Below are positions 1 through 20,369 of a stretch of DNA of 64,000 bases, piece after piece; the stretch's first letter is position 1, and every line of letters starts with the position of its first letter. Position numbers and translations under genes: made by a program. Under the pieces are notes generated by a model. That model did no database searches and was not told the DNA's origin. It saw only the letters and a program-made list of their open reading frames with translations. The stretch is from positions 3,941-67,940 of the forward strand of contig JBDHLB010000007.1 in NCBI GenBank assembly GCA_039586095.1. Direction: 5' to 3'. The stretch comes from Gemmatimonadota bacterium (lineage in GTDB: Bacteria > Gemmatimonadota > Gemmatimonadetes > Palauibacterales > Palauibacteraceae).

Positions 1-1119
1 TTCGGTCACATCCACGAAGCGACCGAGGTCATCACGTAGCAATCGGAGGGTGTGTTCTCCCTCGCCGCGTGTCGCCGCGACGATCAGGTCTTCATCGCCG
101 TCACCGTCGAAGTCACCGACGGCGACCGCGGTTCCCCGACCGCCGGTCGGAGGCGCGAGCGCTCCGACCGGGACCGTGTCCAACGCCGCGGTCGAAGTGG
201 CATCGGAGTACCGAAGGGTCGAGAGCACGAACTCCTGCTCCTGAATCTGGAGGGAGAATTCGTGGCTGAAGGTGAGGCCCAACAGACCGACGATCTCCTC
301 CGGCGGGCCGCGCAGTTCCTGAGCCGCCGCCTGAAACGGTGTCGTGACCTCGAAGTACGCACCGAATCGAGACAGGCTCGTTCGCGCTCCGGCCAGGTCT
401 CCGCTTCGGCCCCGGTCGATCGCCTCTTCCAGAGACTCCGCTGCCGCCTCTGGAAAACCGGGTGCCTGCTGGCGCAGAGCCTCGAGCTGCTCGATCGCCG
501 GATCCGCCCTGCCGGCCGAGAGAAGACTGCGGGCCAGCTCGAGTCGCACGGCCAGGTTGGCGGGAGCCAGTTCGATGGCCCGTTCGAGGTAGCCCCGCCG
601 TTCAGAGGCGCCCTCCTCGCCGCGATGACGTTCGACATGGGTCGCGAGCGCGTAGAGCGTGCGCAGGTGTTCCGGCTCGGCAGCCAGAGAAGTCTCCAAC
701 GTGACACGAGCCGAATCCGGCTGCCCTTCGAGCTCGAAGACGCGGGCGAGGATGAGCGCCACATCCGGGTCGGTCGGTGCCAGCTCGAGCGCTCGCCGAA
801 CCTCGCGTTCCGCATCTTCCACTCGTCCCGCACGCAAGTGCACAAGCGCCAGGTTCGCGTATCCCGCGGCCTCATCGGGCACAAGGTCGATGAGACGGGT
901 GAACTCCGCCTCGGCTTCCTCGAGCCGATCCTGCTGCAGGAACGTGAGGCCGTTCGTCCGGGCCAGAAGCGCCTCACCGGCCGCGGCGCGGACTCCCTCG
1001 TCCGCCTGTCGCTCCCCACACGCCACGGCTGTCAGCGACAGCACGACCACGGAGACCGGCAGGCGCCACCCGCGTAGACGGGATCGTGTGCGCACCGTGC
1101 AGCGAATCCGACGACCCAT
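1..1119 (-). CDS. N-terminal part of a TPR-repeat plus FG-GAP/ASPIC-UnbV (CRTAC1-like) lipoprotein; gene runs off the window start
   Basis: The minus-strand frame is absent from the ORF track because it has no stop inside the window. A manual translation from the ATG at 1119..1117 gives MGRRIRCTVRTRSRLRGWRLPVSVVVLSLTAVACGE... (signal peptide plus lipobox Cys). TPR-like helical repeats follow, then a VGDFDGDGDEDLIVA FG-GAP motif. The start ATG overlaps the upstream gene's TGA (ATGA). Confidence 0.7.
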   Translation of the reverse strand, partial: MGRRIRCTVRTRSRLRGWRLPVSVVVLSLTAVACGERQADEGVRAAAGEALLARTNGLTFLQQDRLEEAEAEFTRLIDLVPDEAAGYANLALVHLRAGRVEDAEREVRRALELAPTDPDVALILARVFELEGQPDSARVTLETSLAAEPEHLRTLYALATHVERHRGEEGASERRGYLERAIELAPANLAVRLELARSLLSAGRADPAIEQLEALRQQAPGFPEAAAESLEEAIDRGRSGDLAGARTSLSRFGAYFEVTTPFQAAAQELRGPPEEIVGLLGLTFSHEFSLQIQEQEFVLSTLRYSDATSTAALDTVPVGALAPPTGGRGTAVAVGDFDGDGDEDLIVAATRGEGEHTLRLLRDDLGRFVDVTE

Positions 1120-2957
1120 CACTCCTCCTCTTGTCCACCCCTTCCAGAAGTCCCCTCGCCCTCGCGCAGGTCGAGTGTGGTCCCCGAAGGCACCGAGCCA
1201 TACAGCTCCTCGAGACCTGACGTCGGCCATCGCACGCGCACGCTGTCGGCCGAATCCAGGCTGCCGAGTCCGAACAACAGCGGGTTCGATTCCGACTGCG
1301 ACAGGTAGGAGGAGCCGGCGCGGACCATTCGGCGCTGGACGAGATCGCCGGCATAGACGGTCACGACCGCGCCGACGGCCGATCGATTCGGCGGCCGGGC
1401 GACGAGCTTCACCCGTATCCACGCCGCAGTTCGGGACGGCAGATCGTTCCGCAGCAGGCGGGGTCGCCCACCGTTCGCCGTGATGATGACATCCAGATCG
1501 CCGTCGCGATCGTAATCCGCGGTCGCGATGCCGCGGCCTACCATCGGCTCCTGGAACGACTCCCCCACCACGTCGCTCACGTCCTCGAACTGACCCTGAC
1601 CCGTGTTCTGGAAGAGCTGAGGCCTTTGCGCGAAGGTGACGTCTCGCATGACGGCGTTCACCTCCGGTTCAATGTGTCCGTTTCCGGTCACCAAGTCGAC
1701 ATAGCCGTCAGAATTCAGATCGGCGAACGCGAGCCCGAAGGTGAGGGGAAGAAGAGTCGATCGTGTGATGCGCGCGGAGCCGGCGAGGTCCTGGAACACC
1801 TGTTCGCCGATCTGCGTGTAGAGCGATACCGGCTCGTTGGAGAAGTTGCCGATCGCGATCGAGAGACGTCCCTGCCCTGTCACGTCCGCGACGTCCACAC
1901 CCATTCCGGCACGAGCCCGACCGAACTCGTCGAACGCCACCCCCGCCGCGACGGCGACGTCCGTAAAGGCACCCGTTCCGTCGTTGAGATAGAGGAAGTT
2001 CTGATAGGTATCGTTCGCGACCACGATATCGGGCCACCCGTCCTGGTTGAAATCCTCGACGGCGACGCCGAGTGACTTCCCCTCCGGCCGATAGACCCCG
2101 GCCGTGCGCGTCATGTCCTCGAAGTCCCGCCCGTCGCGATTCCGGTACAGCCGGCAGCTTTCTCCATCGTACTGCTGTGGCGTCGCGTACGACTTGTTCG
2201 TGCCGTCCAGAGTAGTGAACAGGTCGGTCTTCGGAGTCCAGCGCACGTAGTTGCATACGAAGAGGTCCAGCCAGCCGTCTCGATCGGTATCCACCCACGC
2301 CGCACCGGTGGACCAGGACGGTGGATCGCCCGGCATCCCGCTGTTGCCATGTGCTCCGGTCCGCATCGTCACGTCGGTGAAGCGTCCGCCGTCATTGCGG
2401 AGCAGGCGGTTCGTACCGACGGCTGTCAGGTAGAGGTCGGGGTCCCCGTCGGCATCGTAATCGGCTGCCGTGACGCCCATCCCATACAGGGGCAGCGCGA
2501 GACCGGCCTCCTCCGTCACATCCTCGAATCGCCCGTTGCCCAGGTTCCGATAGAGGCGCGAGTAAGGGGTCGCCCCGGTTCCCCGTCGTCCCGGCCATGG
2601 CGCGCCGTTGACCAGCAGAAGATCGGGCCAGCCGTCGGTGTCGTAATCGAAGAACGCCGCCCCGCTGCCCATCGTCTCGGGCATCCATTTCTCGCCGAAG
2701 GCACCGGTCTCGTGGACGAACGTGATGCCCGATGCGGTCGTGACGTCCTCGAAGCGCATGGCCGTCTCGACTTCCCTTCCCGGAAGCGTCGCATACGTGG
2801 GCCGCGCGTACGCGGGTTCGGTCGTCGGCGGCTCTGCATCGTCGCAGCCTGTTGCGAAAGCCGGGAGGAGGGAAAGCAGCACCACCGGGACGGAGACGGC
2901 AACCGGCGACGGGAGTGAGCCCCCCGGGCCGAGCGAGCCATGGAGATCGTTATTCAC
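1119..2957 (-). CDS. ASPIC/UnbV-type FG-GAP repeat lipoprotein (CRTAC1 family)
   Basis: 612-aa ORF with a lipoprotein signal (LLPAFATGC). It carries multiple FG-GAP-like DxDxDG motifs (DYDTDGWPDLLL, DYDADGDPDLYL, DTDRDGWLDLFV, DFNQDGWPDIVV, DLNSDGYVDLV, DYDRDGDLDVII) and a C-terminal UnbV/ASPIC-like region. Its start lies 8 bp inside the upstream cytochrome gene. Confidence 0.8.
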   Translation of the reverse strand: MNNDLHGSLGPGGSLPSPVAVSVPVVLLSLLPAFATGCDDAEPPTTEPAYARPTYATLPGREVETAMRFEDVTTASGITFVHETGAFGEKWMPETMGSGAAFFDYDTDGWPDLLLVNGAPWPGRRGTGATPYSRLYRNLGNGRFEDVTEEAGLALPLYGMGVTAADYDADGDPDLYLTAVGTNRLLRNDGGRFTDVTMRTGAHGNSGMPGDPPSWSTGAAWVDTDRDGWLDLFVCNYVRWTPKTDLFTTLDGTNKSYATPQQYDGESCRLYRNRDGRDFEDMTRTAGVYRPEGKSLGVAVEDFNQDGWPDIVVANDTYQNFLYLNDGTGAFTDVAVAAGVAFDEFGRARAGMGVDVADVTGQGRLSIAIGNFSNEPVSLYTQIGEQVFQDLAGSARITRSTLLPLTFGLAFADLNSDGYVDLVTGNGHIEPEVNAVMRDVTFAQRPQLFQNTGQGQFEDVSDVVGESFQEPMVGRGIATADYDRDGDLDVIITANGGRPRLLRNDLPSRTAAWIRVKLVARPPNRSAVGAVVTVYAGDLVQRRMVRAGSSYLSQSESNPLLFGLGSLDSADSVRVRWPTSGLEELYGSVPSGTTLDLREGEGTSGRGGQEEE

Positions 2958-5940
2958 CGGCGACTCTCTCGAGTCGGTGCGTGTGGATCGGCTGCGCCAT
3001 CAGGTTCACGCCGGGGTGTGCTCGACGGTACGCGCCCGCAACGGCCTGGGCCGCCTCGTCGATGCGGTACCGTTCGTACGCGGCCTCCGCGGCAGCGGCT
3101 TCGACCTCCCGTCCGAGGGCCCGGAGGACCAGCATGCGGTGATAGTGCGCGACTCGATCCTCCGGATCTATCCTCAGGACGCGGTCCAGCGAGACCAGGG
3201 CCTCTTCGTACTGCCGGTGCAGGTACAGCGTGCGGCCGAGATTTCGCCACGCCGCCCGATCCTCGGGGAAAACCTCGAGGACTCTCCGGAACGCGAGAAT
3301 CGCGTCCTCGTACCGTCCGTCTTCCTGCAGCACCTGCCCCCACACCCAGGCGGCACGTGGATCGCCGGGCCGGATGCCCTCTGCCTCTTGGAGAAGGTCG
3401 TATGCGGCATTCAGGTTGCCGTCCCGCAGAGCGGTTCGAGCCATGTTGAGCGGGCCGTCGGTCCGGTCCGGATGCGCGGCACGCACTCGGTCGAACGCAC
3501 GCATTGCGAGCCTCGTGTTGCCTTCGAGAAGCAGCGCGATGCCGTAGTCGTTGTAACGAGTCCAGTCCTCGTCCCTAGCCGCGGCCTTCTTCGCACTCCC
3601 GTCGGTCCCCGTTTCGCCGTCTGTCGACGGATCAGCGAGCGCTCCCGAGGCGATGGCGAACGACGCTTCGCCCGTGGCGATCTCGGTAACGGGGAGGTCC
3701 GGCACGTCCGCGAAGCGCCGGAACCCCTCCGGATTGGCTGCATACGCGAACTCGGTGAACGCGCGGTCGAACTTGCGCCACAGCAGGCGCGCGCGAACGG
3801 TCAGGTTTCCTCCCGCCGCGCGCTCCGGCACGACGAACTCGTAGTGCGCCACGTCTGCCGTTCCCGGGCCGATCACGTTCGAGGCCGCCGTCACGTAGAT
3901 GTCCTGCCCGTTGCGACGCTGGATTCGCCGGCCCTCGCGGTCCAGCAGCACGACACCGTACACGTGCGCGAGCGAGTCCAGGCGCCGGTTCGGGGCGATC
4001 GAGCCGCTCTTCGCGAGGATGCGACCGTCGCCTTCAAGCAGCTCTACCTCGAGCCATCCCTGGTTCGAGTCGTTCGTCCCGCCTGGAAACGTGTGGCCGA
4101 CGGCGCGATTGCGAACAACCACATCCACGACGACCCGCTCGCCTGGCTCCAGAGTCCGCCTCTCGCCATCCAATGCCAGAGGGGTCCGGTCGTCGCCGCG
4201 GCGGATCGCGAACACGTCGACGCTGAGGGCTCCGTCACGCAGGAACCTCTCGGTGTCGCGCAACGTGGCCGAGTCGCCGCGCACGTACGGGAGCGCCGTG
4301 TTCGCGGCCAGAAACCGGTGCGATCGCACGAGCCCGTCTTCGGCTGCCAGATCTCCCCGTGGCGCGGGCTCCAGCGGCATGTGGCAGTCCTGGCAGACGC
4401 GGCGCGATTCCGGCAGGTAGAACGTGCGCGCCGCATTCAGCGAGATGCCGCTGTCATGCCAGTTGTCGTACTCGTCTTGCCCGCGCAGCCAGCGGTACTC
4501 GTTCACCGGCTCGGTCAGACGGACCTTGTGGCAGGTCGCACAGAACTCCGGCTCGCTGTGCAGCGGCTTCAGCAGGCGTCTCTTGTGCACCGTGGGCTTC
4601 GCCTTGAGGGCCATGTCGTGAACGAAGGCCCTCCAGCTGCCGGCGGGTGCGTCCGCGAACAAGTACGGATCATCTCCAGTGTCGTCGATGTTGTAGTTCG
4701 CGTTGCCGGTCCTCCCGTGCAGCCGATCGATGGCATGGCAGGCGAGGCAGGTAAGCCCGGCTTGCGCTTCCCGGCTCACACGATCGATCGCCTTGTCGAT
4801 CAGCCCCGTGAACAGGAGCGCCGGGTCGTGACAGCCCGCGCACCACTTGCTCTTGACGGGGCCCGATTCGAGCGGCGCCTCCGGGTTCGCCTTCTGATGG
4901 AGACGGATCCACTCGTTGGGCGGGCTGCCGTCTGCTCGCAGGCTCCGCACGCTCGCCTCGTAGAACGGATTGTTGAACGACGCGAAGCGGTGAGCCGAGG
5001 CCGACCATTGCTCGACGGTGTCGGGGTGGCAGCGCACACAGCCTTCCGCGCCGATCGGGGCTTCGGAGGCGAAGCCCTCAGTCCGGACCTCGTCGATCGG
5101 GCTCGGCGTCGTCTTGCTGCCGTCGCCCGGTGTGAAAACGCGCGCGGGCACCAGACCGCCCGACGTCGTGGTCGCCGGTGACGGGAAGAAGAGGCTCTGT
5201 GGGGGTACGAAGTCGGCGGCGACAAAGGACGAGTCCGAGAACTCTTCTGGCGACCGATCAGCACCGCTCGGACCCGTTCCAAGGGTCGCATCCAGAGCGA
5301 TCTGCGCCTCCGGCCCCTTCCGCGTATCGTTGCCACCGGCGACGTGCGCGGCCACAAGCAATACGCCCGCGCCAGCGACGGCCAGCGCGTAGCGACCGAT
5401 CGAAGACCGGGCCGGGCGTGCCAGACTGACGAGTCGGTGCGCCAGATAGCCAAGCGGGATAAGCGCGGCGCAGGCAACGTGTAGCCACCAGGCCCACCGG
5501 TTCTCCTGGCTGGCCGCTTCCGTCAGAATGAAAAGCCCCGTGACGACGAGGACGACCGCCACGCCGACGAACAGGGATCCCGTGAGGATCGAGCTACCGT
5601 GGCGACGTCGCCAGACCCGCGGCAGGTGGGCCAGCACAAAGACCAGGACCAACGCCGCGGCAAGGAGTCCGATTCCCGTATGCGCCAGAAGAATGGCCTG
5701 AAACACGCTCGGCAGGGAGGTCGATCCGGCTGCCAACAGCGTCCAGCCCAGCCCGTCCGCCAGCCGATTGAGAAGCAGATAGAGCGCGCTGGCAAGCATG
5801 AAGCCTGCCAGCACCACCGTCACGCGCAGCAACATGCGCACGCGCGGCGGCAGCAGTGAAGGAAGATTCGGCCGGCCGCTGGGTCTCTCAGGCATGATAC
5901 CGTCTACCCGAACCGGAGCGGCCTGTGCGCCAGGCCCCAC
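2950..5940 (-). CDS. membrane-anchored pentaheme c-type cytochrome with C-terminal TPR domain
   Basis: 996-aa ORF. The N-terminal ~230 aa has 5-6 hydrophobic helices. Five CxxCH heme-binding motifs are present (CVRCH, CAGCH, CLACH, CATCH, CQDCH). The C-terminal ~250 aa is TPR-like. The true start may be an internal Met (MPERPSG or MLLRVTV). Confidence 0.75.
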   Translation of the reverse strand: MGPGAQAAPVRVDGIMPERPSGRPNLPSLLPPRVRMLLRVTVVLAGFMLASALYLLLNRLADGLGWTLLAAGSTSLPSVFQAILLAHTGIGLLAAALVLVFVLAHLPRVWRRRHGSSILTGSLFVGVAVVLVVTGLFILTEAASQENRWAWWLHVACAALIPLGYLAHRLVSLARPARSSIGRYALAVAGAGVLLVAAHVAGGNDTRKGPEAQIALDATLGTGPSGADRSPEEFSDSSFVAADFVPPQSLFFPSPATTTSGGLVPARVFTPGDGSKTTPSPIDEVRTEGFASEAPIGAEGCVRCHPDTVEQWSASAHRFASFNNPFYEASVRSLRADGSPPNEWIRLHQKANPEAPLESGPVKSKWCAGCHDPALLFTGLIDKAIDRVSREAQAGLTCLACHAIDRLHGRTGNANYNIDDTGDDPYLFADAPAGSWRAFVHDMALKAKPTVHKRRLLKPLHSEPEFCATCHKVRLTEPVNEYRWLRGQDEYDNWHDSGISLNAARTFYLPESRRVCQDCHMPLEPAPRGDLAAEDGLVRSHRFLAANTALPYVRGDSATLRDTERFLRDGALSVDVFAIRRGDDRTPLALDGERRTLEPGERVVVDVVVRNRAVGHTFPGGTNDSNQGWLEVELLEGDGRILAKSGSIAPNRRLDSLAHVYGVVLLDREGRRIQRRNGQDIYVTAASNVIGPGTADVAHYEFVVPERAAGGNLTVRARLLWRKFDRAFTEFAYAANPEGFRRFADVPDLPVTEIATGEASFAIASGALADPSTDGETGTDGSAKKAAARDEDWTRYNDYGIALLLEGNTRLAMRAFDRVRAAHPDRTDGPLNMARTALRDGNLNAAYDLLQEAEGIRPGDPRAAWVWGQVLQEDGRYEDAILAFRRVLEVFPEDRAAWRNLGRTLYLHRQYEEALVSLDRVLRIDPEDRVAHYHRMLVLRALGREVEAAAAEAAYERYRIDEAAQAVAGAYRRAHPGVNLMAQPIHTHRLERVAGE

Positions 5941-5949
5941 ACCACGAGA

Positions 5950-6498
5950 CTACGAGTCCCCTTCCTCGATGTCGGCGGTCCAGCGTACGTCCACCGCCCC
6001 ACGCAGGGACTGCGCGGTCGGACACTTCGAGGCATGCCTTTCGAGCGCTCGCTCCACCACCTCTCGCGAGCCAGCGGGAATGCGAAGTCGATATCGGACG
6101 TGAATCTCCGTCAGGACCGGTAGCCCGTCGCGAACCTCATTGATGCCTTCCACGTCGGTGACGATGTCGGCGGGGTCGAGCCGGATCTCGCGCACCTCCA
6201 GTGCGCCGTTGAGCGTTCCGAGCATTCACCCGCCGGCCGCCGCCACGAGATAGTCCACCGGCAGAGGCAGGTCCTCGGCCTCGATCCGGTAGTGCTCCTT
6301 GATGATTCCGTGCACGCCCATATCGAAGTTCGTTCCGTCGTCCAGCGTGGCCAGCCTGTGCACGCCGGACACCTTCTCCACTCGGGCCCGTGCCGTGTAG
6401 AACGCGTCCGTCACTTCGCCCCCCTCTTCTCGTGGATGCCATCCCGATGCCGACGCCGCTTGGCCGGCTCGCGTGCAGAATATATGGGGTGCGGGCAT
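5950..6498 (-). CDS. OsmC/Ohr-family peroxiredoxin with an in-frame UGA (candidate selenocysteine) at the peroxidatic-Cys position
   Basis: Two adjacent ORFs (6226..6498 and 5950..6225) share one frame and are separated only by a TGA at 6226..6228. The joined protein reads ...PVDYLVAAAGG-U-MLGTLNGALEV...ERHASKCPTAQSLRG. This aligns with E. coli OsmC motif 1 (LIGAAHAACFSMALSL) and motif 2 (KAGCPVSQVLK), placing the UGA exactly at the first catalytic Cys. A hairpin lies 20 nt downstream. Confidence 0.6.
6190..6206 (-). promoter_or_regulatory. candidate bacterial SECIS hairpin downstream of the in-frame UGA
   Basis: The mRNA sequence 5'-GCGCAC-UGGAG-GUGCGC-3' forms a perfect 6-bp stem with a 5-nt loop containing GG. 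It begins 20 nt 3' of the UGA, so the loop sits about 26-30 nt downstream, within the usual bSECIS window. Confidence 0.4.
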
Positions 6499-6584
6499 GA
6501 ACGGGCATGAAAAAGAGGGACGGCGAACCGTCCCTCTTTCAATGCCTTATTGTGAGCCTGGTGGAGCCCAGGCCGCGTCTGGCC

Positions 6585-7757
6585 CTACTCCTCGGCTTCC
6601 TCCAGCTCGCCGCTGCGGCGCTTGCGCAGTCGCGCGCCTGCGTAACCCGCGAGACCCAGCCCGAACAGTGTCGTGCTGATGGGCTCGGGCACCTCGGTCA
6701 TGGGAGGCTCTTCACCCTGTTCGCCCCAGACGGGATCTTCCCACCCGTCGTCGCCACCCTCGTTGCCGTTGTTGCCGTTGTTGCCGCTGTTCCCGGAATT
6801 GCCGCTGTTCCCGGAATTGCCGCTGTTCCCGGAATTGCCGCTGTTCCCGGAGTTGCCGCTGTTCCCGGAGTTGCCGTTGTTGCCGGAGTTGCCGCTGTTC
6901 CCGGAATTGCCGCTGTTCCCGGAGTTGCCGCTGTTCCCGGAGTTGCCGTTGTTGCCGGAGTTGCCGCTGTTCCCGGAGTTGCCGCTGTTCCCGGAATTGC
7001 CGCTGTTCCCGGAGTTTCCGCTGTCGCCACCTTCCTCGTTGCCCCCGGTGGTACCGCCCTCGTTTCCACCCTGCGAGCCGCCCTGATTGCCGCCTGCATC
7101 GCCGCCCTCGCTGCCGCCACCGCTGGTCTCGGTGCCGCCTTCGCTTCCTTCATCCTCTGGGAAGCTCCGCACGACTTCCGGCTCATCCCCGCCGGGGAGG
7201 GCGACGGCCACCGCCGTGGGAACGGCAAGCAGGAACAGCGCAGCCACAGGAGCATCTCGATCGCACTCCTCGTCCCGCTCCGCCCGGTCGGAGCCGCTCG
7301 GGTCGTCCAGACCCGGGCGGTCTTCGTCGCACTGGACAAGGCCGGGATCCAGGGCAACAGCCGCGATGCCGTCCAGCCACTCCTCGGTCACATCGACGCA
7401 CCCGATGCCCGATTCCGGCTGGCATGTCATTCCTGAGGCGCTCAGAAGAACCTGAACATCCGCCGTTGGCCGTGCGGCGCTCGCGGCATCCGTGGACGCC
7501 GTCGGCATCGCCCGATCACGCGAAGCCTCCAGCCCGGTCGCGTTCGGCACGAATATCGACAGCTTCTCGCCGACGACGTCCACCTCGACACTGGCACAAC
7601 TCTCGTTCCAACCGCCCTGACACGCTGACTCAGAGGCGACAGCACTGCCGGCGCCTACGACCAACAACCAGGCAGAGCCGCCGGTGAGGAGCAGCATCCC
7701 GAGCATCGCGAGGCCCAGATAGGCCTGACGTCTCGATCGCGACCAAACCGTACTCAT
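6585..7757 (-). CDS. secreted PEP-CTERM-anchored protein with Gly/Asn/Ser low-complexity repeat
   Basis: N-terminal signal peptide (LAMLGMLLLTGGSAWLLVVGAGSAVA) and a Cys-rich N-terminal domain. A long (GNS)n tract follows. The C-terminus has VPEP, a hydrophobic helix and RKRRS, which is a PEP-CTERM sorting signal. Confidence 0.7.
   Translation of the reverse strand: MSTVWSRSRRQAYLGLAMLGMLLLTGGSAWLLVVGAGSAVASESACQGGWNESCASVEVDVVGEKLSIFVPNATGLEASRDRAMPTASTDAASAARPTADVQVLLSASGMTCQPESGIGCVDVTEEWLDGIAAVALDPGLVQCDEDRPGLDDPSGSDRAERDEECDRDAPVAALFLLAVPTAVAVALPGGDEPEVVRSFPEDEGSEGGTETSGGGSEGGDAGGNQGGSQGGNEGGTTGGNEEGGDSGNSGNSGNSGNSGNSGNSGNSGNNGNSGNSGNSGNSGNSGNSGNSGNNGNSGNSGNSGNSGNSGNSGNSGNSGNSGNSGNNGNNGNEGGDDGWEDPVWGEQGEEPPMTEVPEPISTTLFGLGLAGYAGARLRKRRSGELEEAEE
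6762..7032. repeat. about 15 near-perfect copies of an 18-bp tandem repeat (ggaRttgccgYtgttccc) with a 72-bp higher-order periodicity, encoding (GNSGNS)n
   Basis: Directly visible in the sequence between 6762 and 7032. The units differ only at 1-2 wobble or Asn/Ser positions. Confidence 0.85.
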
Positions 7758-11704: not shown

Positions 11705-13120
11705 CTACTGGCGCGCTGCGGTCTCGTCGATCGGAATCGGGTAGGCCGCGTTCACGACGTGCGTCGGTATGTCGAGCGGCAGCTCATCGAGCTTGTTGTA
11801 GCGCCGCATGTCGATCCAGCGGTGTCCACCCTCGTACAGCAACGAGTAACGCTTCTCGTACAGAAGCTGGTCCATTGCCTGATCGGCGTCGGTGAGCGTG
11901 ACCGGCGGTAGACCCCCCGCCCGCTGACGAACGACGTTGATGTCCGTCTGGGCCGCCCCCAGGTTGCCGAGCCCGATGTTCGCCTCGGCGCGGAGCAGGA
12001 TCAGTTCCTCGTTCCGGATGATCGGAATCGGCGTCGTGCTGGTCGAGTAGATGTCGAATCCGATGTCACACGTCGGAAACGCCGACTGCGGCGTGCACAG
12101 GACCCCGTTGTACGAGCGCGAAGCGATCTCGCGGGTCTTGGCCACGAAACGATCGTCGGGCGTCCCATCCAGCTTCAACTCCACATCCTCACCGAGCGAC
12201 GGGTGCGCTCGTAGATTCGGATCACCGCCCGGCTGGAAGAGCTCGTTCGTGCGGTCGCCCGATCCGGTGCTGAAGGTGTGGTACACTCCGTTATCTAGGG
12301 ACCCCGCCGCCCTCAGAAAGGATTCGCCCAGAGCGGTGAGCGCGATCGAGTAATCGCCCATGTAGACGGCCACCCGCGCCCGAATCCCCCGATTGAACTG
12401 CCGGAACGTCGCGGGAGTGTCGAACCCGCTGAAGCCGCTCGACAGCCGGAAGGGGAACGCCGTGGCGCCCTGCAGGTGTCCGTTGGCTTCCTCGAGCAAC
12501 TGTACGATGTGATCGAACACCTGCTCCTTGGAGGCGTTCGGCGCGGGCGTGCGCGGGTCCTCCGCGATCGTGATCGGGCACCCGCAGTTGGTGTCCCGCG
12601 TGTTCACGAGCGACAGGAACTCCAGCGCCTGCATCGTCTTGGCGAAGCCGCGCAACGCTTCCTTCTCGCCTGCAGAAACCTCGGCATCGTCCACCTCATC
12701 CGTTCCATCGAGCAGAATGTCCGCCAGCTTGATGTTGGCGTACGGCTCGGCCCAGTAGTTGCCTCCGAAGGCGGGGCTGGAGGCCTGTAGTGATCCGGCC
12801 AGCATCTCGCTCTCGAAGCGCGGGTCGGCCACGTCGTGGTTGTAGGACTCGCGACCCAGAATCCCCAACATCGAAACCAGGTCGTTCGGGCCCAGATGAT
12901 ACTGTCGGTATCCGATGATTAGCCCCTGCGCGGTCGTCGCGAGTCCGGCCCGGTCTGGATTCGACGTCAGCTCCTCGAGATCACCGAAGTTCGAGTTCGG
13001 CGACGTGAGGTTCTGACAGCCTGCCAGCCCGACCAGAACCGCGGCCGCGAACAGCGGCCCAACGATTCTTTTCAACATGATCTCCGCTCCATTCCTTGGA
13101 TTCGTTCGCTCTGTCTTCAT
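11705..13120 (-). CDS. SusD/RagB-family nutrient-binding outer-membrane lipoprotein
   Basis: 471 aa with a lipoprotein signal (VLVGLAGCQNL) and SusD-like TPR-ish helical content. It lies 15 bp downstream of the SusC-like gene in the classic tandem arrangement. Confidence 0.8.
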   Translation of the reverse strand: MKTERTNPRNGAEIMLKRIVGPLFAAAVLVGLAGCQNLTSPNSNFGDLEELTSNPDRAGLATTAQGLIIGYRQYHLGPNDLVSMLGILGRESYNHDVADPRFESEMLAGSLQASSPAFGGNYWAEPYANIKLADILLDGTDEVDDAEVSAGEKEALRGFAKTMQALEFLSLVNTRDTNCGCPITIAEDPRTPAPNASKEQVFDHIVQLLEEANGHLQGATAFPFRLSSGFSGFDTPATFRQFNRGIRARVAVYMGDYSIALTALGESFLRAAGSLDNGVYHTFSTGSGDRTNELFQPGGDPNLRAHPSLGEDVELKLDGTPDDRFVAKTREIASRSYNGVLCTPQSAFPTCDIGFDIYSTSTTPIPIIRNEELILLRAEANIGLGNLGAAQTDINVVRQRAGGLPPVTLTDADQAMDQLLYEKRYSLLYEGGHRWIDMRRYNKLDELPLDIPTHVVNAAYPIPIDETAARQ

Positions 13121-13135
13121 CGTCGTTCCCTTCGA

Positions 13136-16028
13136 TCAGAGGCGGAGATCGAAGCCGAACCAGAAGCTGCGGCTCGGTGGGAACGGAGCCACATCGATCG
13201 AGCGTCCGACCTGCTGCGTTCCGAAGTTGCTCACCTCGGGATCCAGACCACGGTAGTTCGTCACCGTGAACAGGTTGCGGCCGCTCGCTCTGAGCCGGAT
13301 CTGATCGAAGAAGCCGTTGAAGATCCGCGACGTCACGCTCTCGGGAAGCGTGTAGCTGAGCGCGATCTCGCGTGCCTTGAAGAACGAAGCGCGTTGCGTG
13401 TACGGAAGCGCCCACCCGTTCACGAACCCGGCCAGGCGTTCGGCACCGCTGCAGTCCGGGCGGCACGACTCGGTCGAGAAATCCGAGCTGGCGTTGAAGA
13501 AATCGTTCGGATCCCCAAAGTCGGCGCTGTTGACCGCCCCGTCGTACAGCAGCTCGGTCAGGTTCACGACCGACTGTCCCTGCCGCCACTCGAAGAGGGT
13601 GTAGATTTGGAAGTCGCCCAGCTGGAAGTCGTTCGCGAAGTTCATGTTGAAGTCGGGATCGGAATTCCCCGTCGAGACGCGTGACCTCACTCCGATTCAT
13701 GAAGAAGCTGGTGCGCGAGTTCCAGGTGAAGCCGCTTCGGACGATCGGCGTGACGCCCAGCGCGGCCTCGAAACCGTAGTTGCGCAGCTCCCCGCCGTTG
13801 AAGATCACGTCGGCGAAACCGGTCGACGGAGCGACGGTGGCCTCGATGATGAGGTTATCGACGTTCTGCAGGTAACCGGTCAGCTCGAGGCTGGCCCGTC
13901 CGTCGAAAGCGAGGATGTCGACGCCGCCTTCGAACTCGGTCATACGCTCGGGCTCCAGAGCCTCGCCGCCTCCCACCGTGCCCTCGATCTGAAAGCCGCC
14001 GATGCCCTCGATGTTGTTGTCCAGCTCGAGGCTGGTGAACTTCTGGCACCCTTCGCGCGGGTCACAGGTGGGCGGGTTGCCCGTCTGACCGACCGCGGCC
14101 CGCAGCTTCACCTCGTCCACGAAACCGCCCACATCGGGGAAACGGTACGAGGCAGCCCCCTTCGGGAAGACGAACAGCTTGGTCGGATCGCCGTTGGCGG
14201 AGCTTTGGTCGAACCGGACCATCCCCGTAAGGAGAAGCCGGTTGTCCAGCAGCAGGACTTCCTCCTGTACGAAGAATCCGAAGTCCTCGACGTTGGCTCG
14301 ATTCTCTCGAATCTGCACCTCGGTGGCCGCATCAGGCTTGTTCTTGCCGCCGGTCAGATCCCGTCCGACCAAACGCGAGATCGTGAGGCTCACGTCGTCG
14401 TAGTTGAAGCCGAAGGATGTCGTTGCCGTGAGCGCGCTCGACGGCGTCCACCGCCAGATCCCGTTCACGTTCACGTTGAAGTTCAGGTTGTTTGTGTTGC
14501 TGAGCAGCGAGGTACCGGGCCGCCCGTCAAAGCTCTCATAGTGGAGCGCCGGGGGAGAGAAGATCCGGTTTTCCTGCGTGAAGAAGTCGACCCCTCCGGT
14601 CGCCACGATGTTCACGCGGTGCGTGCCGTTGTCGATCAGCCCCACATCCACGTTCCCCGAGGCCAGGAGCCTCCAGACATCCTCATCGTTTTCCAGCAGT
14701 GCGGCGGTCTGCAGCGGGTTGCTCCCGTTCCCCACGAACGGGTTCACGGGGAACGTCCCGTCCGGCTGTTGTCCCAGATCGATGAAGTTCGGCGTGCCCG
14801 GGAACACCATGTACCAGCTGGTCTGGCTATTGTCGTTGTTGGTCAGACCGCGGCTGGCGACGGTGTGTATGACGTTGGTGTTGAGTGAGATCTCGGTCAT
14901 GCCGAGTCGGGTGCGAAGGTTCGCCCGCGCCGCCTGCCGCTCGAAGCCGGTGTTGTCGACGATGCCCTCGTCGTTCTTCCACACGGCGGAGCCGAAGTAC
15001 TGCACGCCCTCGGCCGTTCCGCCGCTCACGCTGCTGGACAGGTCCCACGAGAGGGCGTTGCGTCCTGCCAAGCCCGCTTCGTGATCGAACGTCACGCCGG
15101 GTTGAAAGAAGCTGCGCGCCGTCTCTCCGAAGGTGCCGACGGCCTCCTCGACGTCCCCGAAGGTGCGAAATCCGAGCGTGTTGCGGAGATCGAAGTAGCC
15201 GCCCAGGGCGCTCACGCGTACCTGTGGTGGCCCGACCTGACCGCGCTTCGTGGTGATGATCACCACGCCGTTGCTGGCCTTCACACCGTAGATGGCGGCC
15301 GCCGACGCACCCTTCAAGATCTCGATGCTCTCGATGTCATCCGGGTTGATGTCGGAGATCCGATTCGTGAGCGCGTCCTGCTCCAGCGACGGGTTGGAGC
15401 CGCCCGCGGCATCCGTGATCTCGTTCTGGTTGCTCGGAATCGCGATGTTGCTCACCACGACACCGTCGATCACGTAGAGCGGCTCCGCAGCGGCGTTCAC
15501 CGAGGAGGACCCTCGAATGTTCAGCTGCAGGCCGCCGCCGGGCGCCCCCGTGTTGCTGGCGATCACCGCCCCGGCGACGCGGCCCTGCAGCGCCTTGTCC
15601 AGAGTCTGCTGCGGCACCGCCTCGAGCTCCTCACCCTGGATCGACTCCACCGGGTTCGGAGCGTTGACCCGCCGGGTCTCCGTAGCCCGACCGGTGACGA
15701 CCAGCTCCTCCACCCGCAGGTAGTCGATCTCGAGGTTTACCGTCACCGTGTTCTGGCCCGCGGGAACCGCCACTTCGAGTGACTGATACCCGATCCGCTG
15801 GACCACGAGCATCACGTCGCCCGCGGGCACGTTTTCGAGTGCGAACGTTCCGTTCTGGCTCCCGACCGTTCCGATGGCCATTCCGCGCACTGCGACCTGC
15901 GGGAACTCCACGGGCTCGCCCGACTGAGCGTCGGTCACGGTCCCGCGGATCGTTCGCTCCTGCGCGAACAGCCCTCCGGTGGAGAAGAGCAAGAACAACG
16001 AGATCAGCGCACAAAGCCTGTACCTCAT
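13136..16028 (-). CDS. SusC/RagA-type TonB-linked outer-membrane receptor, with an apparent frameshift near 13661-13670
   Basis: N-terminal signal peptide, a carboxypeptidase-regulatory-like domain (RTIRGTVTDAQSGEPVEFPQV), a TonB plug and a long barrel. The authentic barrel C-terminus (...NYRGLDPEVSNFG...SFWFGFDLRL) is in a different frame (ORF 13136..13690). The 1015-aa ORF 12981..16028 continues as Arg-rich junk after ...FFMNRSEVTRLDGEF. The frame change sits at a homopolymer (cccc at 13667-13670). Confidence 0.7.
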
Positions 16029-17435: not shown

Positions 17436-17924
17436 ATGGAGCGAGGTGTGGGTGACCTGAGATCCGACAACGTCGTCTGGCAGACGGATCCAGTCAGTCG
17501 TGAAGAGCGTGAGGAGCGCCGAGGTCATCGCGGTGTCGTTCTGTGGCTCACCGGCCTCTCGGCGAGCGGCAAGAGCACCCTCGCCATGGAAGCGGAGAAG
17601 CGCCTCTTCGAGCAGGGCTACTTCAGCTACGTGCTGGACGGCGACAACGTACGACACGGACTCAACGGCGATCTGGGCTTTTCTCCGGAGGATCGGGTCG
17701 AGAACATCCGGCGCGTGGGAGAGGTGGCCAAGCTGTTCGCGGAGGCCGGCGCGATCGTCCTGACCGCATTCATCTCACCCCCCTACGAGCCACCGAGCGA
17801 CCCTGAACTGATCGTCGAAACGAACGTCCACGACGTGGACGAATGTGTGGGACGCATCATCGGATATCTGAGCGATCACGGGTACGTCCGCGGCGTCGAC
17901 CCGCTGCGTGCGCTCTCGGGCTGA
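17436..17924 (+). CDS. cysC: adenylyl-sulfate (APS) kinase homolog with an internal ~50-aa deletion
   Basis: The N-terminal 115 aa align almost residue-for-residue with E. coli CysC ([19 protein letters not shown]...DGDNVRHGL...[12 protein letters not shown]...VLTAFISP). The segment corresponding to E. coli HRAERQ...FIEVFVDTPL...DPKGLYKKARAGE...FTGID is absent. Confidence 0.7.
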
Positions 17925-17931
17925 GCCTACC

Positions 17932-19173
17932 ATGGGTTCGACGCGGGCTGCGTCCTCGGCCACACGCCCGGTGACGTCCCATCCGACCGACTCGAACAAG
18001 CCCGAGTCGAGCACCGTGCCAGGGCCGATCGCGCCGTACGGGGGCCGGCTCGTGGACCGCACGGTGCGACCCGACAGGCGACGGCAACTCGTCGAGCGGG
18101 CGGGGTCGCTGCCGGAGCTGCGGCTCGATGGCCGAGTTCTTAGTGACCTGTACCTGCTGTCGGTTGGAGCGTTCTCTCCCCTTGTCGGCTTCATGAGCCG
18201 TGAGACGTATGTGTCGGTCGTCGAGGAGATGTCGCTCCCGATGGGACTTCCGTGGACGATTCCTGTCGTGTTGCCTGTGGGGGCGGATGAGGTGACGGGC
18301 TTCGGACCCGGGGACGAAGTGGCCCTGCTCGCTCCGAGCGGAGAGCTGGCCGGCACGCTCGAGGTGAGCGAGGTGTTTGCGCGCGACGTGGAGCGGGAGG
18401 CCGAGCGGGTGTACGGCACGACCGACTCCGCTCATCCGGGCGTGGCCGCGATACAGGCTCAGGGGACGCATTGTCTATCCGGCGCCGTGCACTATGCGTA
18501 CACGAACGACATCAGCGGCTTTCCGGCCGATCATCTCACGCCCGAAGCCACTCGACGACACTTCGAGGAGGCCGGCTGGCGTTCGGTGGTGGCGTTCCAG
18601 ACCCGCAATCCGATCCACCGGGCGCACGAATATTTGCAGAAGTGTGCTCTGGAGATCGTGGAGGGGCTTCTCGTCCACCCGCTCGTGGGGGAAACGAAGT
18701 CGGACGACGTGCCCGCCGAGGTGCGTATGGAGTGCTATCGGGTCCTCCTGGAGCGCTACTTCCCCGGCGATCGCGTCCTGCTGTCGGTTCTGCCGGCCGC
18801 CATGCGCTACGCGGGCCCGCGCGAGGCAGTGTTTCACGCGATCATGCGCCGCAACTATGGCTGCACGCACCTTATCGTGGGCCGGGACCACGCTGGCGTC
18901 GGTGACTTCTACGGCACCTACGACGCCCAGCGAATCTTCGACGAAATCGACGCGGATGCGCTCGGCATCCGCCCGCTCAACTTCGAGCACGCGTTCTATT
19001 GCCGACTCACCCAGCAGATGGCGACCTCCAAGACGTCGCCCGCCGATCCCGACCAGCGGGTCTTTCTCTCGGGCACCAAGCTGCGCGAAATGCTCCGCCG
19101 TGGTGAGCGGCCCCCCGCCGAGTTCACCCGGCCCGAGGTCGCGAACATCCTCCTGCAGGCGTACCGGGATTGA
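17932..19173 (+). CDS. sat: sulfate adenylyltransferase (ATP sulfurylase)
   Basis: Motifs QTRNPIHRAHE and GRDHAGVG and the full ATP-sulfurylase domain. It is contiguous with cysC. Confidence 0.85.
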   Translation: MGSTRAASSATRPVTSHPTDSNKPESSTVPGPIAPYGGRLVDRTVRPDRRRQLVERAGSLPELRLDGRVLSDLYLLSVGAFSPLVGFMSRETYVSVVEEMSLPMGLPWTIPVVLPVGADEVTGFGPGDEVALLAPSGELAGTLEVSEVFARDVEREAERVYGTTDSAHPGVAAIQAQGTHCLSGAVHYAYTNDISGFPADHLTPEATRRHFEEAGWRSVVAFQTRNPIHRAHEYLQKCALEIVEGLLVHPLVGETKSDDVPAEVRMECYRVLLERYFPGDRVLLSVLPAAMRYAGPREAVFHAIMRRNYGCTHLIVGRDHAGVGDFYGTYDAQRIFDEIDADALGIRPLNFEHAFYCRLTQQMATSKTSPADPDQRVFLSGTKLREMLRRGERPPAEFTRPEVANILLQAYRD

Positions 19174-20369
19174 CCCGAAGGTCCTGCCGGCGCTTCGCCC
19201 CGGTCGGCCCGGCCGGGCGATGGACGTGGCTGGCCGCGTTCGTGGTGGCCGGGGCGGCAGGTTGCTCGGGAGACTCTGCAGTCTTCGAACCCATCCCCAC
19301 GGGTCAAGGTGGCCTGATCGGGCTGGAAACGGTGGCCACGGGGCTCGAGCGGCCGCTTCTGCTGACGGCTCCGCCCGGGGACGATCGCCTGTTCATCGCG
19401 GAGCAGCCCGGCCAGATTCGAATCGTGAAGGACGGCTCGCTGCTACCCGCGCCGTATCTGGACATCCGGGCCCAGGTGCGGAGTTCGAGCAACGAGCAGG
19501 GCTTGCTGGGTTTCGCCTTCCACCCCGACTACGCCTCGAACGGCTTTCTCTATGTCAGCTACACGTTTGGTAACGGCGACAGCCGGGTCGAGAGGTACAC
19601 GGTCTCGCCCGACCCGGATCGGGCGGATCCTGCATCCGCGCTCACCATCCTGGAAACGGACCAGCCGGCCGCCAATCACAACGGCGGGCTCGTGACGTTC
19701 GGCCCTGACGGCATGCTGTACGTGGGCCTCGGAGACGGAGGCGGAGCCGGCGACCCGTTCGGCAACGGACAGGACCCGAACACGTGGCTGGGAGCGATCC
19801 TCCGCATCGACGTCGATGGCGGAGATCCCTACGTCGTGCCCGCCGACAACCCCTTTGTCGGGCAGACCGGTGCCCGGCCGGAGATCTGGGCCTACGGACT
19901 CAGAAACCCGTGGCGGTTCGCGTTCGATCGAGAAAGCGCCACGCTGTTCGTCGCCGACGTGGGTCAGTCCAGCCTCGAAGAGATCAACGCGGCCCCGGCG
20001 TCCGCTGGCGGACTCAACTACGGCTGGAATGTCATGGAGGGGTCGCAGTGCTTCGGCAGCGACCCGTGCGATCGAGCCGGCCTCACGCTTCCCGTCTTCG
20101 AGTACGACCACTCACAGGGCTGTTCCGTCACCGGCGGCTTTGTGTATAGAGGAGGGGCAATCGCCGATCTTCAAGGCCTCTATCTCTATTCGGACTTCTG
20201 CAGCGGCTTCCTGCGCAGTTTCCGGCTCGAGGGAGGCGAGGCCGTCGAGCCACGTTCGTGGCCGGTCGGGGACCTCGGCAGCGTCCTGTCGTTTGGCGAG
20301 GACGCGGCCGGCGAGCTGTACGTGTTGACCGGCGACGGCCGAGTGCGTCGTCTGGCGCGGGCTCCCTGA
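19170..20369 (+). CDS. PQQ-dependent sugar dehydrogenase (soluble glucose/sorbosone dehydrogenase family), lipoprotein
   Basis: Lipobox AGAAGCSG plus GSDH-family motifs (HNGG, GLRNPWRF, PxxxY...GWN). The start overlaps the sat stop (ATGA). Confidence 0.8.
   Translation: MTRRSCRRFAPVGPAGRWTWLAAFVVAGAAGCSGDSAVFEPIPTGQGGLIGLETVATGLERPLLLTAPPGDDRLFIAEQPGQIRIVKDGSLLPAPYLDIRAQVRSSSNEQGLLGFAFHPDYASNGFLYVSYTFGNGDSRVERYTVSPDPDRADPASALTILETDQPAANHNGGLVTFGPDGMLYVGLGDGGGAGDPFGNGQDPNTWLGAILRIDVDGGDPYVVPADNPFVGQTGARPEIWAYGLRNPWRFAFDRESATLFVADVGQSSLEEINAAPASAGGLNYGWNVMEGSQCFGSDPCDRAGLTLPVFEYDHSQGCSVTGGFVYRGGAIADLQGLYLYSDFCSGFLRSFRLEGGEAVEPRSWPVGDLGSVLSFGEDAAGELYVLTGDGRVRRLARAP

Follow-up and report, generated by a model that had tools for sequence, protein, structure and literature searches.

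Near-obligate pairing of a membrane-anchored pentahaem cytochrome with a CRTAC1-like lipoprotein points to an undescribed bacterial redox module

The 64,000-nucleotide stretch of DNA analysed here (hereafter, the window) originates from a Gemmatimonadota bacterium of the Palauibacteraceae (assembly GCA_039586095.1, contig JBDHLB010000007.1, positions 3,941 to 67,940 of the forward strand). At its left end, on the minus strand, a gene encoding a membrane-anchored pentahaem cytochrome with a tetratricopeptide repeat (TPR) tail is followed by a gene encoding a CRTAC1-like lipoprotein with FG-GAP and UnbV_ASPIC domains (hereafter, the ASPIC protein). The conserved unit at this locus is a pair of genes, extended to three in the Gemmatimonadota, Calditrichota and KSB1, and the pairing of the two genes points to a respiratory-type redox module that has not been described before. 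A preliminary description of this DNA, made from the sequence alone, had proposed an uncharacterised extracytoplasmic redox module within a cluster of four genes, and the pairing reported below bears out that proposal. The genes of the module, in transcription order, are:

2950..5895, minus strand: cytochrome gene (981 aa counted from the ATG at 5895), encoding a transmembrane (TM) anchor, a pentahaem domain, an immunoglobulin (Ig)-like sandwich and a TPR tail
1119..2957, minus strand: CRTAC1-like lipoprotein (ASPIC) gene (612 aa), encoding a signal peptide, a lipobox with Cys38, an FG-GAP propeller and an UnbV_ASPIC domain
1..1122, minus strand: 5' part of the third gene, encoding a lipoprotein with TPR followed by FG-GAP repeats; the first 373-374 codons, running off the left end of the window

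Scanning one genome per species with two exact peptides as patterns identified at least 288 genomes encoding a relative of the cytochrome, a lower bound given those patterns. The best 80 of these 288, of which 51 are Gemmatimonadota, were taken as loci with 10-kb flanks, and their open reading frames (ORFs) were searched with the four proteins of the window cluster; taxon labels are those of the metagenome-assembled genome records. An ASPIC ortholog (~600 aa, >560 bits) is the next gene downstream, on the same strand, in 65 of the 67 loci with at least 1.9 kb of downstream sequence. The pairing is seen in Gemmatimonadota (41/42), Calditrichota (1/1), KSB1 (2/2), Marinimicrobia (1/1), Bacteroidota (9/9), Rhodothermota (1/1), Planctomycetota (5/5), Latescibacterota (4/4) and loci labelled 'Deferribacteres' (1/2), and it is present in the cultured genus Lutimonas (Bacteroidota). 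Since the same order recurs in 65/67 loci from at least eight phyla, the arrangement is not due to chance. The third gene, which encodes a TPR-FG-GAP-ASPIC protein, occurs in 36 of the 40 informative Gemmatimonadota, Calditrichota and KSB1 loci and in none of 18 elsewhere. A first clustering of neighbouring genes was dominated by shadow ORFs within the cytochrome and ASPIC genes, which were masked; after masking, no other gene family is found in more than 6 of 81 loci and none recurs across phyla. The annotated flanking genes are entirely different between phyla and, because no other family recurs, the cytochrome-ASPIC pair is a stand-alone unit. The gene order seen in the window therefore holds across at least eight phyla for the cytochrome and the ~600-aa ASPIC protein, holds for the third gene only in the Gemmatimonadota, Calditrichota and KSB1, and does not hold for the OsmC-like gene that precedes the cytochrome in the window. 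The pairing is also seen in a distant member of the cytochrome superfamily (P0163, 38% identity), with an FG-GAP/UnbV_ASPIC gene 2 nt downstream.

Several loci present further members of these families next to the conserved genes. Just downstream of the three-gene cluster of some Gemmatimonadota, two loci (L009, 12394-15823; L017, 17138-21584) harbor a paralogous pair. Its first gene is cytochrome-like, encodes ~705-724 aa and scores 163-183 bits against the cytochrome of the window, and an ASPIC-like gene begins 14 nt later; in L018 (15160-17274) a cytochrome-like gene is present and the contig ends before the position of a partner. Double FG-GAP/UnbV_ASPIC paralogs of ~1230-1270 aa lie immediately upstream of the cytochrome in L030, L045, L080, L047, L048, L051 and L002, placing the cytochrome amid up to four ASPIC-family genes in several Gemmatimonadota and in KSB1. 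In an 8.1-Mb genome (L006, 6724-7986), ribBA (DHBP synthase/GTP cyclohydrolase II) stops 14 nt before the cytochrome, which may be chance or a hint of a flavin link. In Lutimonas saemankumensis (L059, 5879-9467), the pair is closely preceded by genes for a P-type cation ATPase and a Na/Ca exchanger, with an NDH-2 slightly further upstream; this is seen in one genome only, and we note the exchanger beside the Ca-binding FG-GAP fold of the ASPIC propeller. Three loci labelled Gemmatimonadetes/Gemmatimonadota (L074, L076 and L081) share flanking families with the Latescibacterota loci L085-L087, suggesting mislabelled bins or a transferred region.

To describe the cytochrome, residues are counted from the ATG at 5895. 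An AlphaFold2 model was built, haem-free, from an alignment of 59 orthologs (54-83% identity), with a mean predicted local distance difference test score (pLDDT) of 81.5 and a predicted template modelling score (pTM) of 0.82. In the model, five TM helices lead into a helical haem domain at residues 265-555; a beta-sandwich (557-748) comes next, and a TPR solenoid (777-967) comes last. These three parts all lie on the periplasmic side, after helix 5. The corresponding features are:

5335..5832, minus strand: five-helix membrane domain (residues 22-187), with helices from the AlphaFold2 model and Arg-rich loops
4231..5103, minus strand: pentahaem c domain, periplasmic (residues 265-555), with CXXCH motifs at 286, 352, 383, 452 and 501
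3652..4227, minus strand: Ig-like beta-sandwich (residues 557-748; 537-728 in model numbering A2), with strands modelled at pLDDT about 90
2995..3567, minus strand: TPR domain, periplasmic (residues 777-967), matching Pfam TPR_19, TPR_16 and TPR_2, with helical repeats modelled at pLDDT >90

All five CXXCH motifs are invariant in the 59 orthologs and are kept in 84 superfamily members at 27-49% identity. A Foldseek search with the model devoid of its TPR part returned one strong match (E=3e-10, 501 columns), to the penta-haem cytochrome c552 from Thermochromatium tepidum (PDB 5ZE8), which is also the only haem protein reached by sequence with phmmer. In the low-scoring phmmer alignment, CXXCH motifs 1, 2, 3 and 5 pair with those of 5ze8 and the fourth does not, RNRAVGHTFPGG aligns with 'RNLQ-PHAMPTG' of c552, and 'GHTFPGG' falls opposite 'PHAMPTG'. 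This stretch belongs to an invariant loop of the sandwich, GHTFPGGTxDxN..W, at residues 600-614 in the 59 orthologs, the residues of which are largely retained in the 84 superfamily members (H601 in 83, T607 in 75, D609 in 84 and W614 in 82).

The c552 or 'PHC' fold family includes Geobacter ExtKL, the PHCs of cable bacteria and PtdA (PMC11976967; bioRxiv 10.1101/2025.11.18.688581; bioRxiv 10.1101/2023.11.21.568154). Like the window protein, its members combine five CXXCH motifs with a following Ig-like sandwich that carries a loop of the form N-x-x-(G/P)-H-x-x-P-x-G. Those already known are soluble, reside in the periplasm and carry a cleavable signal peptide, whereas in the window protein the fold is set between a five-helix, His-bearing anchor and a TPR domain of ~190 residues, and its gene is paired with a CRTAC1-like gene. 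A 2025 preprint identifies ExtKL as the polysulfide reductase MccSep, in which Cys239 is the distal ligand of haem 2 and the catalytic selenocysteine (Sec), Sec325, sits in the Ig-domain loop (bioRxiv 10.1101/2025.11.18.688581). Aligned by eye to the published MccSep loop peptide (..TNHAGHSIPDGUPTPNR), which carries the Sec in the context D-G-U-P (U325), the invariant loop of the window protein matches it with Thr607 (P-G-G-T) at the Sec position, and this residue is Thr in 75 of the 84 superfamily members. The window protein also has no conserved Cys outside the five CXXCH motifs that could correspond to Cys239, its sole other Cys (C142) being located in the membrane domain. With Thr at the Sec position and no conserved non-CXXCH Cys, the cytochrome, judged by its sequence, is not an MccSep-type enzyme. 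The only universal His residues outside the CXXCH motifs are H302, H437, H526 and H601, with H644 kept in 66 of 84 superfamily members. Because four universal His residues are available for five haems, one c haem may be devoid of a fixed distal ligand.

In the membrane domain, H72 and H90 lie on TM2 and H139 and H153 on TM4. All four are invariant in the 59 orthologs, and among the 84 superfamily members (27-49% identity) H72 is kept in 82, H139 in 83, H90 in 68 and H153 in 67. The Arg-rich loops RVWRRRH and RLVSLARPAR, after helices 2 and 4, fit the positive-inside rule and thereby place H90/H153 near the cytoplasmic face and H72/H139 near the periplasmic face. The cytochrome b of bc1 complexes likewise has two helices with two histidines apiece and, because of this resemblance, we infer that the four residues may ligate two b-type haems stacked across the membrane.

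In outline, this architecture is reminiscent of CbcL, a single polypeptide in which a His-bearing membrane domain, with two b haems proposed, is fused to a multihaem c domain in the periplasm, and which links the quinone pool to periplasmic acceptors (PMC6295460). CbcL is, with ImcH, CymA and NrfH, one of the multihaem cytochromes of the inner membrane that oxidise quinol, and the window protein has, as in the CbcL type, conserved TM histidines fused to a multihaem c domain. However, CbcL carries nine N-terminal c haems and a C-terminal, six-helix, HydC/FdnI-like domain, whereas the window protein has the reverse order, five haems of another fold, additional Ig and TPR domains, and a membrane domain that matches no known b family.

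The TPR domain is a candidate site at which one or more of the lipoproteins could dock. The haem/Ig core is matched by 2174 cluster representatives at E<1e-3, and by 525 when the threshold is E<1e-30, among 1.84 billion. Among the 150 representatives listed, most of those that look full-length share one layout, with four or five TM segments, then four or five CXXCH motifs and then a tail of ~200 aa. Where the database names inspected go beyond 'hypothetical protein' they cover the TPR part only, reading 'tetratricopeptide repeat protein' and, once, 'Flp pilus assembly protein TadD'.

Pfam assigns the ASPIC protein to FG-GAP_3 (E=1.2e-42, in six stretches) and UnbV_ASPIC (E=2e-14), and the only solved relative of the ASPIC orthologs is human CRTAC1 (PDB 9etn; E=8e-18). 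A total of 84 residues are invariant across 72 ASPIC orthologs, and nearly all of these harbor a lipobox. The third gene likewise encodes a lipobox, and its full-length ortholog in locus L007 (1209 aa) contains UnbV_ASPIC, confirming the presence of two CRTAC1-like FG-GAP/ASPIC lipoproteins proposed in the preliminary description. The window and human proteins share the FG-GAP Ca-binding propeller and the C-terminal UnbV_ASPIC domain, but the window protein is a bacterial lipoprotein genetically coupled to a cytochrome. It has no EGF family among its Pfam matches and stops ~20 residues past UnbV_ASPIC. Three residues that are invariant in the bacterial orthologs (H428, M352 and E375) differ in human CRTAC1. 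When the invariant residues were sought in paralogs, hmmsearch broke the repeat proteins into fragments. A CRTAC1-family gene has been reported between hydrazine-synthase (HZS) homologs in non-anammox bacteria (PMC12758564), which constitutes an independent precedent for an FG-GAP gene of this family among periplasmic c-haem redox genes. In those clusters, however, the haem proteins are homologs of HZS alpha and beta-gamma and bear no relation to the cytochrome of the window, there is a link to an ABC transporter, and no membrane anchor or TPR is described.

Taken together, these results suggest a module that moves electrons between quinones and the periplasm, in which a cytochrome with b and c haems is joined by a propeller lipoprotein docked on its TPR/Ig part. 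Electrons would pass between the quinone pool and the periplasm via two b-type and five c-type haems, and would be used in, or collected from, a reaction involving the propeller lipoprotein, while overlapping stop and start codons would keep the subunits in step by translational coupling. We assign a rough probability of 0.45 to this reading as a whole. The data show the domain architecture, the invariant haem motifs and histidines, the lipoprotein signals of both FG-GAP proteins and the adjacency of the genes in many phyla; b-haem binding, quinone coupling, contact between the two proteins, the course of the electrons and the substrate reaction are inferred.

Several observations weigh against it. 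The membrane domain belongs to no known cytochrome b family by sequence: Pfam searches to E 10, a 13-sequence profile against PDB sequences and Pfam searches on every member returned only noise, with a single member of 13 reaching PF01292 (the HydC/FdnI-like Ni_hydr_CYTB family) at E=0.098, which is not significant; the assignment of haem b thus draws solely on the His pattern and the topology. The ASPIC protein has no recognisable redox cofactor site, and its only conserved Cys is the lipid-anchor Cys38. Two distant superfamily members have different neighbors and no adjacent ASPIC gene, and hence the cytochrome can work without ASPIC. Two apparent cytochrome-ASPIC fusions among metagenome proteins (P0133 and P0211) were rejected as artefacts, one being a frameshifted read-through with out-of-frame, Arg-rich junk and the other an internal deletion or chimera, so that fusions provide no evidence of contact. 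The loci inspected are, moreover, the 80 best of 288 and are drawn for the most part (51) from the Gemmatimonadota. Finally, MccSep, the one member of the haem/Ig fold family that has been characterised, is itself the catalyst, acting at haem 2 via its Ig-domain loop.

This last point favours the main alternative, one that we nevertheless consider unlikely, according to which the cytochrome would itself be the whole enzyme, a membrane quinol:X oxidoreductase with its active site at haem 2 under the Ig loop, and the lipoprotein a non-catalytic accessory that would bind, present or shield the substrate, or tether the complex to the outer membrane. Conservation of the corresponding loop (T607 in 75/84, D609 in 84/84 and H601 in 83/84 superfamily members), a haem possibly without a fixed distal ligand, as the four universal non-CXXCH His would suggest, and the existence of distant members without an ASPIC gene are all in keeping with this view. 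Both MccSep catalytic residues are, however, missing, with Thr in place of Sec325 and no conserved Cys for Cys239, the loop alignment was made by eye from a published peptide, and haem ligation in such an enzyme is predicted from sequence. In addition, the near-obligate pairing and the 84 invariant ASPIC residues exceed what would be expected of a passive accessory.

The pairing could also reflect a structural or adhesive role, with the propeller lipoproteins organising or stabilising the cytochrome at the cell envelope, or attaching the cell to an insoluble or polymeric extracellular partner for electron exchange, comparable to the NHL-repeat propellers reported alongside outer-membrane cytochromes. 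Animal FG-GAP/CRTAC1 proteins, represented here by the 9etn match, are Ca-binding, non-enzymatic proteins of the matrix and of adhesion, several large ASPIC paralogs cluster around the cytochrome gene in Gemmatimonadota and KSB1, and a structuring role in cytochrome complexes has been proposed for NHL-propeller proteins (bioRxiv 10.1101/2022.05.06.490989). Conversely, no porin or outer-membrane cytochrome gene is conserved beside the pair, its carriers include ordinary marine heterotrophs such as Lutimonas, and the divergence of H428, M352 and E375 from human CRTAC1 suggests a function beyond the shared scaffold. We therefore regard this explanation as improbable.

The gene preceding the cytochrome in the window encodes an OsmC-like protein that had been included in the proposed four-gene cluster as a peroxidase and possible selenoenzyme. 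Its features are:

5950..6414, minus strand: OsmC-like selenoprotein gene (154 aa, GTG start, U63 and C131; Pfam OsmC, E=3.8e-14)
6226..6228, minus strand: in-frame TGA read as selenocysteine (U63), at the position of the peroxidatic (first redox) Cys of OsmC/Ohr
6190..6206, minus strand: hairpin resembling a selenocysteine insertion sequence (SECIS), GCGCAC-UGGAG-GUGCGC, with a 6-bp stem and starting 22 nt after the U of the UGA

The TGA is kept in 20 of 20 distinct OsmC orthologs (that of the window and 19 from the cytochrome loci), and C131 is the resolving Cys. At the DNA level the gene is 92% identical to its ortholog in L007; before as well as after the TGA, most substitutions fall at third codon positions. 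The stem of the SECIS-like hairpin (alignment consensus GCGCAC-UGGAR-GUGCGC) is paired in 100% of alignment cells, an A-U pair is replaced by G-C in L030 (the one compensatory change), a G-C pair becomes G-U twice, and synonymous sites are invariant within the hairpin and vary just upstream of it. Covariation is weak, as the element hardly varies, and 42 of 500 shuffles reach the observed score. On the strength of the conserved TGA, the codon-position pattern and the conserved hairpin, the selenoenzyme guess was correct, and the OsmC sequence is that of a genuine selenoprotein. In every locus inspected (L007-L080) the gene appears as two abutting ORFs; in L007, the only locus with gene calls, it is called as two genes of 62 and 91 aa, and an OsmC Pfam match is on record for the downstream piece only.

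OsmC-like selenoproteins (COG1765; NF041052) are already known from the selenoproteome of the Sargasso Sea (PMC1088965). The window protein shares with them the OsmC fold, Sec in place of the first redox Cys and a SECIS hairpin shortly after the Sec codon, but it scores 30.8 bits against NCBIfam NF041052, far below the cut-off of 95, and bears the local motif U-M-L-G-T. Given this score, its sequence places it in a separate, Gemmatimonadota lineage of Sec-OsmC, which is thereby added to the known OsmC-like selenoproteins. Direct reading of the N-terminus detected no hydrophobic segment, signal peptide or lipobox, so the sequence is that of a cytoplasmic protein of the thiol/selenol peroxidase type. 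No tRNA of any kind was found in the 64-kb window, and a Pfam scan of ten large window ORFs detected neither Sec machinery nor cytochrome-maturation genes.

Across the inspected loci, OsmC lies within 10 kb upstream of the cytochrome in 19 of 51 Gemmatimonadota. It is directly upstream (46-75 nt, same strand) in about five of these, the window among them, and 1.5-9 kb away in the others; it was not found in any of the 29 loci from other phyla. The idea of OsmC as a member of the module is accordingly not upheld, the protein being cytoplasmic, confined to the Gemmatimonadota and mostly distant from the cytochrome. Proteins of the OsmC/Ohr type normally receive their reducing power from thiol systems of the cytoplasm. 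An operon of four genes whose cytochrome feeds a periplasmic or surface peroxide-detoxifying complex including Sec-OsmC, as put forward in the preliminary description, is hence very improbable, for although the window and about four other Gemmatimonadota genomes have OsmC immediately upstream with no intervening terminator, a protein with neither signal peptide nor lipobox would sit on the opposite side of the membrane from the haem domain, and the gene is absent from 29/29 non-Gemmatimonadota loci and usually 1.5-9 kb from the cluster.

In the window itself, OsmC is probably co-transcribed with the module, as the likely first gene of the transcript, because a strong terminator lies upstream of OsmC and none lies between OsmC and the cytochrome. 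From the ORF calls and Pfam, positions 1-6546 of the minus strand contain, in transcription order, the terminator, the OsmC-like gene, the cytochrome, the ASPIC gene and the TPR-FG-GAP gene, and Pfam confirms each of the domains named earlier for these four genes. The 5' boundary of the transcription unit is:

6504..6546, minus strand: intrinsic terminator of the preceding gene, with a 13-bp GC-rich stem followed by UUUUU

The terminator has a fold energy of -30 kcal/mol (z = -6.0), and 0 of 200 shuffles are equally stable. Fold analysis of the OsmC-cytochrome spacer revealed an unstructured sequence without a terminator, and the single terminator-like match inside the cytochrome ORF, against 2.9 expected, is within chance. 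The four genes thus share a strand, are separated by short or overlapping junctions, have no terminator between them and are preceded by one, in line with an operon. A sigma-70 promoter scan returned no promoter, although this consensus may not apply to the phylum.

Two of the three junctions differ from those first described. The 9-nt gap between OsmC and the cytochrome rested on the longest ORF, starting at GTG 5940. The cytochrome of L007, 83% identical, starts at an ATG matching 5895 in the window, and the later Met is replaced there by Thr; the codons for LPSLL, a conserved motif of the N-terminus, lie downstream of ATG 5895. These observations together support ATG 5895 as the start, giving a gap of 54 nt, equal to that of L007. 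The 8-bp overlap between the cytochrome and ASPIC genes stands as described (GTGAATAA), with a GTG start at 2957 that is kept in L007. The reported ATGA overlap at the third gene is in fact GGAGTGATGG, which can be read in two ways: the start is GTG and overlaps the stop by 4 bp (GTGA), as it does in L007, or it is an ATG sharing one base with the stop codon (TGATG); the gene consequently starts at 1122 or 1119.

Other genes in the window were also noted. Upstream of the terminator at 6504-6546, a minus-strand gene (6585-7757) encodes a 390-aa secreted protein with ~30-35 tandem Gly-Asn-Ser triplets and some GNN/GNE variants, weak matches to collagen-like adhesins and a PEP-CTERM-like C-terminus (VPEP..., a hydrophobic helix and RKRR). 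Positions 11705-16028 (minus strand) harbor a SusD-like and SusC-like pair (CarboxypepD_reg plus Plug), and the same pair is found at the equivalent place in L007. On the plus strand (17908-20366), an ATP sulfurylase gene has a 4-bp overlap with the start of a GSDH-type (glucose/sorbosone dehydrogenase) beta-propeller gene.

Each part of the module is of a known kind, and the searchable literature yielded no description of the near-obligate cytochrome-CRTAC1-like pairing, nor of the fused architecture or the membrane domain that matches no family. The c552/MccSep fold is extended to a membrane-anchored form, together with a candidate new membrane haem-b anchor. Annotated only as 'tetratricopeptide repeat protein', the cytochrome is invisible to surveys of genes for respiration and extracellular electron transfer. 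CRTAC1/ASPIC-UnbV proteins, for their part, abound in several phyla of environmental importance, and the literature searched assigns them no function in bacteria. Their almost obligate pairing in at least eight phyla, with relatives of the cytochrome encoded by the genomes of at least 288 species, places both families in a concrete, testable context. We further propose, as a doubtful but possible extension, that the propeller lipoproteins may be the substrate-binding or catalytic subunits of a new class of quinone-linked periplasmic oxidoreductases with a dihaem-b-type anchor, a pentahaem module of the c552/MccSep fold and a TPR docking arm. If this were true, such cytochromes would have alternative partners in the many ASPIC paralogs of the Gemmatimonadota, KSB1, Planctomycetota and Acidobacteriota, and the ancestry of animal CRTAC1 would gain its first clue as to function.

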